In this document: in pieces, positions 6,513 to 8,356 of the stretch
Numbering within the stretch: the stretch's first letter is position 1
Layout of the letters: each line of letters starts with the position of its first letter
From: a virus
Lineage: Duplodnaviria; Heunggongvirae; Uroviricota; Caudoviricetes
IMG/VR virus record: IMGVR_UViG_2913147268_000001
Span: 1 to 9,341 of that record
Length of the DNA stretch: 9,341 bases
Reading direction: 5' to 3' (one strand)
Notes under the pieces: model-generated
Databases searched by the model: none
What the model saw: the letters and a program-made list of their open reading frames with translations, nothing else
What the model was told of the DNA's origin: nothing
Made by a program: the position numbers and the translations under genes

Positions 6513-6768
6513 GATGCTGACCCATCCGCGCTACGGCATGGGGAAACGTCTTGGTGCGGCGGATGTGGATAAATGGGCGCTGTATGTCATCGGCCAGTAC
6601 TGCGACCAGTCGGTGCCGGACGGCTTTGGCGGCACGGAGCCGCGCATTACCTGTAATGCGTACCTGACCACACAGCGCAAGGCGTGGGATGTGCTCAGTG
6701 ATTTCTGCTCGGCGATGCGCTGTATGCCGGTATGGAACGGGCAGACGCTGACGTTCGTGCAGGACCGT
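6513..6768 (+). pseudogene. J: J internal fragment (roughly lambda aa 305-390), lambda-like allele
   Basis: MLTHPRYGMGKRLGAADVDKWALYVIGQYCDQSVPDGFGGTEPRITCNAYLTTQRKAWDVLSDFCSAMRCMPVWNGQTLTFVQDR, flanked by IS1 on the left and an inverted J N-terminus on the right. Confidence 0.85.
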
Positions 6769-6930
6769 GTCCAGCACCGGCGTACTGTTCAGCAGCACGC
6801 TTTTTAATCCATCCACCGGACCTTCAACCGGCCCTTCGCTGATGGCATCGATCACACTCAGCAGCTGCGTGGACTTCAGGTTGTCCTTCGCTTCGCGCGG
6901 GGTATGCCCCTTACTGCTGCCTTTACCCAT
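6769..6930 (-). pseudogene. J: J N-terminal fragment (aa 1-54), lambda-like allele
   Basis: Reverse complement ATGGGTAAAGGCAGCAGTAAGGGGCATACCCCGCGCGAAGCGAAGGAC... encodes MGKGSSKGHTPREAKDNLKSTQLLSVIDAISEGPVEGPVDGLKSVLLNSTPVLD, essentially lambda J. The ORF then reads into the antisense of 6513-6768. Confidence 0.85.
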
Positions 6931-7160
6931 TCACCGAAGCCGGTCTGCGCGCCGGCTGACCCGTCATCGTTAAACTATCATTCACCGATTTTCTGTGAGG
7001 ATTTTATCGTGTCAGACACACTTTCCGGGACAACGCATCCCGATGACAATGACGACCATCCCTGGTGGGGACTACCCTGCACAGTGACGCCCTGTTTCGG
7101 CGCCCGTCTGGTGCAGGAGGGTAACCGGTTGCATTACCTTGCCGACCGTGCCGGTATCAG

Positions 7161-7196
7161 GCCATCTTTAAGCACGCCAGAAATTTTTACTGTCAT
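7161..7196 (-). pseudogene. stf: Side tail fibre gene start, first 12 codons only (MTVKISGVLKDG)
   Basis: Minus-strand ATG (7194-7196) followed by a translation matching the lambda Stf start MAVKISGVLKDG, in native position downstream of lom; a stop follows after 8 unrelated codons. Confidence 0.5.
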
Positions 7197-7210
7197 ACTT
7201 TTCCACCAAT

Positions 7211-7241
7211 AAAAAAGCCCGCAGCAGTGACGCCACGGGCT
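7211..7241 (-). terminator. Putative terminator hairpin downstream of lom (minus strand)
   Basis: 6-bp stem AGCCCG/CGGGCT with a 14-nt loop, followed on the minus strand by TTTTTTATT; about 100 nt after the lom stop. The loop is large, so this is weak. Confidence 0.4.
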
Positions 7242-7346
7242 TCAGGACAGTGTAACTTTACGTTTCCTCAAACGCAGTTCACCCCATAAGGTGGATGAAC
7301 CTGCGTATCATAACAATATTTACAGAAGATAAATCGGCGTCTGTTG

Positions 7347-7622
7347 TCAGAAACGGTATCCGATACCAACAATAAATGCATCCGTTCGCCAGTCGCCACT
7401 ACCGGAACCTTCATAAGCAAGGTCAATGGTCACGGATTCGGTCGGGTTAAACTGCACGCCAGCCCCCCACGCCAGAGACGTGTTGCTGTGGCGACCGTCA
7501 TCACTTCCGGTCAGCACATCGTGCGTTTTCCCCTTGTTGTCAGTTACGCGGAGATAATCCCCGGAGAAAGTCGACACACGGCTGTAAGCCACACCCGCCA
7601 TCGCATACGCGCTGAACCATTC
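7347..7622 (-). pseudogene. lom: Lom C-terminal fragment (roughly aa 109-198)
   Basis: Minus-strand translation EWFSAYAMAGVAYSRVSTFSGDYLRVTDNKGKTHDVLTGSDDGRHSNTSLAWGAGVQFNPTESVTIDLAYEGSGSGDWRTDAFIVGIGYRF with stop at 7347-7349. Its first 56 bp are the inverted copy of 2627-2682. No N-terminus or signal peptide. Confidence 0.85.
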
Positions 7623-8356
7623 GGCTCACTTTCACCTTCACGCCGTCGGTGACGGACTGAACCTCCACGCTGACCGGACTCCCCTGCCCGTCAACCAGGC
7701 TTATCAGCGTGGTGCCGGAAGATGGCAGCGTGATTTCACGGTCGAGCGTCAGCGTCCGGGTCTGGCTGTTTACCGCCAGCACGCGCCCGCCGGTGCGGAT
7801 ACCGGCATAGTCATCATCGCAGATTTCAATGACATCGCCCGGTACATGGCGAAGCCCTTCGGCACCCACGCTGAAGTCCACGGTCTGCGTTTCCAGCAGT
7901 TCTGTTTTAATCAGCCACAGCCCGGCGCGGTGTGCCTGCCCCCGGCTGGTACAGCCAAAAGCATCCATCTTCGTGACGTTACGACCGTAACGGGCAATGG
8001 CCTGCGTGTCCTCCACAAGCTCTGTCGCCGTCTCCCAGCCGTTATTCGGGTCAATCCAGTTCACCTCAACGGCATTATGGCGGTCCTTCAGGGCGCTGAA
8101 GCCGGTCCTGCACGAACGTCAGCGTCTGCCCGTTCCATACCGGCATACAGCGCATCGCAGAGCAGAAATCACTGAGCACATCCCACGCCTTGCGCTGTGT
8201 GGTCAGCCAGGCATTACAGGTGATGCGCGGCTCCGTGCCGCCAAAACCGTCCGGCACCGACTGATCGCAATGCTGGCCGATGACATACAGCGCCCATTTG
8301 TCCACATCCGCCGCACCAAGACGTTTCCCCATGCCGTAGCGCGGATGGGTCAGCAT
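7623..8356 (-). pseudogene. J: J internal fragment (roughly lambda aa 305-545) with a ~75-80 bp internal deletion and frameshift
   Basis: Minus strand reads MLTHPRYGMGKRLG...TLTFVQDR (8356 down to ~8104), then with a frame change FSALKDRHNAVEVNWIDPNNGWETATELVEDTQAIARYGRNVTKMDAFGCTSRGQAHRAGLWLIKTELLETQTVDFSVGAEGL...VKVKVSR, all matching lambda gpJ. The PSDKTWTYNRSNVVMPDDGAPFRY stretch is missing. Confidence 0.85.
8101..8356. repeat. Inverted duplicate of the J aa 305-390 segment (partner 6513-6768)
   Basis: Reverse complement of 8101-8356 aligns base-for-base with 6513-6768 with about 10 substitutions, mostly third-position, plus two clustered changes giving Y to H and Y to W. Both copies begin at the same ATGCTGACC and end at the same CAGGACCG. 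Confidence 0.85.

Follow-up and report, generated by a model that had tools for sequence, protein, structure and literature searches.

Within a stretch of 9,341 nucleotides (nt) assigned to a tailed virus (Caudoviricetes; IMG/VR record IMGVR_UViG_2913147268_000001, positions 1 to 9,341), referred to here in its entirety as the window, an internal segment of the lambdoid prophage tail gene J occurs twice, in opposite orientations. The two copies represent different J alleles and begin and end at the same base of the gene. An earlier note on this DNA took them for an inverted repeat bracketing 1.3 kb and proposed that the bracketed DNA could be inverted by homologous recombination. This raises the question of how two alleles came to be cut at identical coordinates, and whether the arrangement exists in any DNA molecule. 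Our analysis indicates, with a probability of about 94%, that the window is not one contiguous molecule and consists of nodes of a de Bruijn graph, bluntly concatenated without spacers, in which k-1 = 56 (k = 57 in the node-centric convention) and the two J copies form both branches of a single bubble. As DNA architecture, the inverted repeat is not real.

Two J alleles with the same ends

A base-by-base comparison places the inverted pair at 6514-6767 (+ strand, arm A) and 8103-8356 (- strand, arm B), with 254 nt in each arm and a spacer of 1,335 nt (6768-8102) between them. The repeat search alone had given 6514-6778 and 8092-8356, at 95% identity, and it was the base-by-base comparison that refined these ends. 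An inverted repeat is present, as the earlier note maintained, although its length of 256 bp and its limits (6513-6768 and 8101-8356) have to be corrected, three of the four ends being displaced by 1-2 nt: base 6513 belongs to a piece of the insertion sequence (IS) IS1, base 6768 to a piece from the N-terminal part of J, and bases 8101-8102 to another J piece. The assignment of the segment to J residues 305-390 was not borne out either. In alignments to J of phage lambda, both arms correspond to nt 835-1088 (residues 279-363, with the sequence MLTHPRYG beginning at residue 279), at identities of 98.4% and 95.3%.

Both arms open at the ATG of MLTHPRYG and close at the same J base, which is the second base of a codon, and in the pairwise comparison their endpoints coincide exactly, in agreement with the identical cut coordinates previously described. 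The arms differ at 10 positions (96.06% identity), which matches the divergence of about 4% estimated before, and all the mismatches are confined to arm positions 57-198. Six of them are synonymous single third-position changes, whereas the other four lie in two codons and lead to the substitutions Y29H and Y50W, so that the description of mostly synonymous changes plus two non-synonymous sites was accurate. The exact tracts common to both arms measure 56, 47 and 56 nt.

Sequencing error, which had been considered as a possible source of these 10 differences, is ruled out, since the two arms match, at 100% identity, two different annotated natural gpJ sequences, confirming the origin of the pair in two distinct alleles. 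Arm A is identical to the gpJ of Escherichia coli 4/1-1 (reference locus L004, 6001-6254) and of many other strains, and arm B to that of CFSAN064035 (L003, 6548-6801) and many others. These alleles are named A and B, respectively, and a third allele, C, is represented by loci L001 and L002. Judged from the alignments, the similarity between the arms is homology, far beyond chance. Nevertheless, the arms are 254-nt internal fragments of J, and no intact copy of the gene exists in the window.

The 56-nt rule and the k = 57 graph

Exactly 56 nt without a difference precede the first mismatch between the arms, and exactly 56 nt follow the last one. In their natural contexts, alleles A and B differ at J nt 798, then between nt 891 and 1032, and again at nt 1092. 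For k-1 = 56, a graph node containing the central differences is predicted to run from 891-56 = 835 to 1032+56 = 1088, which is exactly the extent of both arms. The same calculation holds for two other J pieces. The differences at nt 1219-1586 predict a node covering J nt 1163-1642, which is found at 7623-8102 (- strand; allele B, 100% identical to L003), adjoining arm B, and the differences at nt -2 and 164 predict a shared node from nt -1 to 163 (the start codon and first 54 codons), which is found in reverse at 6768-6932 (- strand) and is 100% identical to both L003 and L004.

In a toy compacted de Bruijn graph built from L003 and L004, k = 57 was the only value from 49 to 65 to give both arms as unitigs; the shared node at the start of J was also a unitig in this simulation. 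A graph of the SPAdes type with k = 55 was considered and rejected, as the flanks would then measure 55 nt and the simulation fails both at k = 55 and at k = 56.

The same length recurs throughout the window. Among the maximal exact repeats of at least 48 nt, all five measure exactly 56 nt, including a lom pair (2627-2682/7567-7622) and an IS1 pair (6023-6078/6260-6315). These two repeats are the k-1 overlaps of graph neighbours that have been set far apart or whose order has been swapped. The ends of the segments were analysed by anchoring at each of them and recording the length over which a sibling allele in the reference loci remains identical. Twelve ends, located in J, lom, stf, IS1 and IS66, match a sibling allele for exactly 56 nt and diverge at base 57, any other length being seen at most twice, and in the control none of 96 random internal anchors gave exactly 56 nt. 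Thus, for instance, the node at 7623-8102 shares both of its terminal 56-mers with L004, which then diverges, and the node at 980-2682 (+ strand; allele C, covering J from nt 2219 as far as its end together with lom nt 1-380, at 100% identity with L001 and L002) begins with a 56-mer common to L004, with divergence after it.

The other end of this last node, at 2682 (equivalent to 7622, lom nt 380), coincides with the point at which ISEc12, an element of the IS21 family, is inserted in the lom gene of AVS0343 (L001 16629/19211); it is precisely at points of this kind that a graph branches. The window piece 7161-7622 (- strand; lom from nt 325, its last 56 nt, 7567-7622, being the overlap with the node ending at 2682) runs through lom without interruption, and the assembled sample probably held both an interrupted and an intact copy of this gene. 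Moreover, in independent draft contigs deposited at NCBI (L005-L010), the sequence stops or passes into N gaps at J nt 768 and lom nt 380, positions that are also the node ends of window pieces 2-979 and 980-2682.

An open reading frame (ORF) of 255 amino acids (aa) resembling a truncated J is present at 4-768 (- strand), its stop codon being created by the junction at window base 1. The identical product, a 255-aa J N-terminus, is recorded only on unrelated short NCBI draft contigs, 24 in number, each of which ends or meets an N gap at J nt 768. As this example illustrates, truncated proteins made at contig ends or at junctions of this type do enter protein databases.

The bubbles, unitigs and k-1 overlaps of compacted de Bruijn graphs are known to behave in this way, the published description concerning SNPs in graphs of bacterial genomes (PMC6258240), and the pair resembles the branches of such a bubble in its common endpoints, its identical k-1 flanks, its interior differences and the k-1 overlaps between neighbours. 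Likewise, the pieces end, as graph nodes do, at IS insertion points and where alleles diverge. What sets the window apart from the usual graph output, in which each node has its own record, is merged with its neighbours through the overlaps, or is set off from them by Ns, is that its nodes are abutted with their overlaps kept, creating a false adjacency. The draft contigs broken in lambdoid J genes share the node ends, but they mark the gap with Ns or simply stop, which the window does not.

A sequence of steps leading to this record can be proposed. The input would have been E. coli material in which lambdoid prophage tail genes and IS elements were present in several copies. Single-nucleotide polymorphisms (SNPs) between repeat copies open a bubble in the graph, and each allele then receives its own node, with a margin of k-1 bases on either side of its outermost differences. 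Arms A and B are the branches of one such bubble in gene J, which is the reason for their identical endpoints, their identical 56-nt ends and the central position of all their differences. Short-read assemblers such as Velvet, ABySS and SPAdes handle bubbles of this kind. Later, the small repeat-derived nodes of the short-read assembly would have been written in succession, overlaps included and spacers omitted, as a pseudomolecule, a gap-free scaffold or a node dump. The inverted orientation of the arms and the 1.3-kb spacing would reflect the order and orientation in which the nodes were written, and not the DNA. The sample evidently carried at least three J alleles (A, B and C), and would have come either from one isolate harbouring three or more lambdoid prophages, or from a mixture.

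It has to be noted that several observations do not fit comfortably with this interpretation. The node at 7623-8102 (J nt 1163-1642) stays whole across a 56-mer common to L003 and L004 (nt 1306-1361), where a strict node-centric graph with k = 57 would split it; for this, arcs with read support are required or, alternatively, a sibling allele distinct from L004 at that position. In addition, the stf piece, from the N-terminal part of the tail fibre, contains at 2903-3009 a stretch of 107 nt with a period of 51, which is not the simple duplication of a 56-nt overlap. The CFSAN064035 reference, otherwise 100% identical to this piece, has one copy (441 vs 492 nt). The 107 nt (51+56) could correspond either to a real tandem duplication of 17 codons bounded by CGTCA or to a longer array collapsed by a graph walk that does not reuse a 57-mer, so that, among the five repeats of 56 nt, one may have arisen by coincidence (51+5) or from a collapsed tandem array. 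Furthermore, arm B and the node on its inner side derive from the same allele and are colinear, which hints at some scaffold-like, residual information on genome order rather than a purely arbitrary succession. Finally, the concatenation step itself, as well as the program or person that joined the nodes, is something that we infer from its product.

Junctions and other possible origins

The junctions in the window are blunt: the natural continuation of each source departs from the window at the very next base, and the apparent overlaps of 0-2 nt are those expected for random abutment. About 20 junctions of this type are found in 9.3 kb, some of them involving unrelated islands such as YeeU and Gp2. 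To the left of arm A, an IS1 fragment (6316-6513, + strand, matching IS1A in L011 1501-1701) is bluntly joined at 6513/6514, and the J sequence that naturally precedes nt 835 (..GTGGGAT) is missing there. To its right, the reversed start of J (nt -1 to 163) is attached, again bluntly. On the inner side of arm B lies J nt 1163-1642 of the same allele, the natural J nt 1089-1162 (74 nt) being missing between them. On the outer side, at the blunt junction 8356/8357, there is a tnpC fragment of the IS66 family (8357-8559, - strand, 100% identical to L013 2612-2410).

The DNA bracketed by the arms, once proposed as a segment able to invert, consists of four unrelated repeat fragments bluntly joined: J nt 163 to -1, a piece running from upstream of a YeeU-family antitoxin gene into it (6933-7160, + strand; L012 1504-1731; a multi-copy gene of CP4-type islands), the lom piece, and J nt 1642 to 1163. 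Two queries spanning the junctions (6420-6900 and 7630-8560) reached a coverage of at least 80% in none of 5,426 complete E. coli genomes, where the best matches end exactly at the arm limits 6514, 6767 and 8356, and where every genome holds at 8102/8103 the 74 nt that the window lacks. In none of these complete genomes were the arms physically contiguous with the DNA between them. The junction in the arm-A query was not found in the plasmid collection, no record of the phage collection covers most of the window, and a 40-mer across 6513/6514 is absent from viral, genome and metagenome contig collections. A 93-aa ORF located on arm B has no entry on record. The proposal of an inversion substrate fails because the arms are not physically adjacent.

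The idea that the junctions might coincide with Met codons, or with gene boundaries, was also discarded. Of the 42 segment ends, only 3 open with an ATG, two of which are the single site shared by the arms, and the coincidence is attributable to chance.

Taking into account these data, a real and contiguous graveyard of scrambled prophages and IS elements in an E. coli chromosome, in which a genuine 254-bp inverted repeat could undergo RecA-dependent inversion, appears very improbable. Decayed lambdoid prophages broken by IS elements do occur in E. coli (that in L001 is an example), and arms of 254 nt that are 96% identical and include exact tracts of 56, 47 and 56 nt would suffice for homologous recombination. 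However, no biological process sets breakpoints exactly 56 nt away from the SNPs of alleles that reside elsewhere, and does so at 12 independent ends. The absence of the tested junctions from all 5,426 complete genomes, and the density of blunt junctions between unrelated islands, also contradict this origin.

Similarly small is the probability of a chimera generated in vitro and sequenced as one contig, whether by blunt-end ligation, by template switching during multiple displacement amplification (MDA), or from restriction or polymerase chain reaction (PCR) fragments with shared ends. Junctions that are blunt and without microhomology do look like ligation products, and a restriction site or a primer pair could, in principle, give two alleles the same ends. 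Nevertheless, the natural sequence on both sides of each cut contains no palindrome or common motif (GGGAT|ATGCTG, GGACCG|ACC, CTACA|GCTTC), which excludes a restriction-site or ligation origin, and random shearing would not break two alleles at the same base. MDA chimeras usually carry microhomology; the overlaps of just 0-2 nt observed here are at chance level, and microhomology-mediated or template-switch junctions were rejected on this basis. As for PCR amplicons, the conserved ends of the arms could be primer sites, but the 56-nt rule also holds in unrelated elements. In sum, none of these procedures explains why, in J, lom, stf, IS1 and IS66 alike, the ends keep a distance of exactly 56 nt from the allele differences.

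No more credible is a deliberate shuffle in silico, that is, a decoy or synthetic mosaic made by alignment-guided cutting and pasting, with no k-mer graph involved. Cutting by alignment coordinates would give identical coordinates in two alleles, and the perfectly blunt junctions would agree with it. However, such a procedure would not leave exactly 56 identical nt on either side of a variable core, would not give rise to 56-nt overlaps between graph neighbours such as the lom and IS1 pairs, nor would it make a node stop where other strains have an IS insertion. Even with this origin, the inverted repeat would have no physical existence. Least probable of all is a physically real scrapyard, chromosomal or episomal, with a true 254-bp inverted repeat able to flip 1.3 kb, which would oblige the 56-nt regularities to be coincidental or to derive from some unknown process of cutting that measures homology.

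Composition and meaning of the window

Local BLAST and exact-match mapping to the fetched reference loci resolve the window into about 21 pieces of 134-1,703 nt, in both orientations, and phage and E. coli records match it only piecewise. With the exception of 5559-5761, the pieces could all be identified, each of them as a fragment from some multi-copy element of E. coli: three lambdoid J alleles, L-K-I, lom, the tail-fibre gene stf, IS1 (three pieces), IS4, two IS66 variants (four pieces), a YeeU-family antitoxin region, and an inovirus-Gp2 or zinc-ribbon island region. Neither a long ORF nor a recombinase gene is found in the window.

The IS1 sequences comprise two nodes at 6023-6315 (- strand; 6023-6156 and 6157-6315), which are graph neighbours with a 56-nt overlap and swapped order, and the piece next to arm A (6316-6513), whose orientation is opposite to that of the other two. 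A fragment of IS4 occupies 5762-6022. Between it and the Gp2/zinc-ribbon fragment lie the 203 nt of 5559-5761; here, the top megablast matches covered the IS4 part only. From 8357 to 9341, four consecutive IS66-family pieces from two variants follow one another: two of the L013 type (8357-8559, - strand, and 8560-8850, + strand), one of the ISEc23 type (8851-9309), and an IS66 end (9310-9341), which is the last piece of the window. The L-K-I piece (3181-4675, compared with L001 8001-8649 and 11178-12041) contains an uninterrupted K, whereas the K gene of AVS0343 carries an insertion of ISEc23, a member of the IS66 family. The IS end fragment matching this insertion in K is the one located at 9310-9341.

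With regard to known systems, inverted repeats bracketing DNA in the tail or host-range region of phages bring to mind the invertible tail-fibre segments, such as the G segment of Mu with Gin, the C segment of P1 with Cin, and e14 with Pin. In these systems the crossover sites are short, a serine recombinase gene lies alongside, and the alternative C-terminal exons are in frame. By contrast, the window has no recombinase, the fragments that make up the spacer are unrelated, and the arms, which come from inside J (codons 279-363), lack frame continuity. Neither a coherent cargo (a promoter or alternative exons) nor an adjacent recombinase gene, which would be the marks of an invertible segment, was found, and although the homology to J is evident, no reading frame remains intact across the gene in the window. 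The pair belongs to no family of invertible segments.

The pair itself has no biological importance, and the practical value of the finding is the recognition that the record, or at least its 9.3-kb window, is a concatenation of nodes without spacers. Therefore, any repeat, junction, truncated ORF or gene order observed in it is suspect. Two signs can be used to diagnose records of this kind: the accumulation of exact repeats at one single length (k-1), and the presence of near-identical segment pairs whose differences begin and end exactly k-1 from their ends.

Homologous recombination between co-resident lambdoid prophages occurs in E. coli, and J alleles A, B and C share exact tracts of 56-92 nt, which are real substrates for such an exchange. 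This process, however, would act between full-length prophages lying far apart on the chromosome, and not on the 1.3-kb layout seen in the window. The biology that remains is ordinary: that of E. coli with several lambdoid prophages, whose J genes share exact tracts of a length sufficient for recombination.

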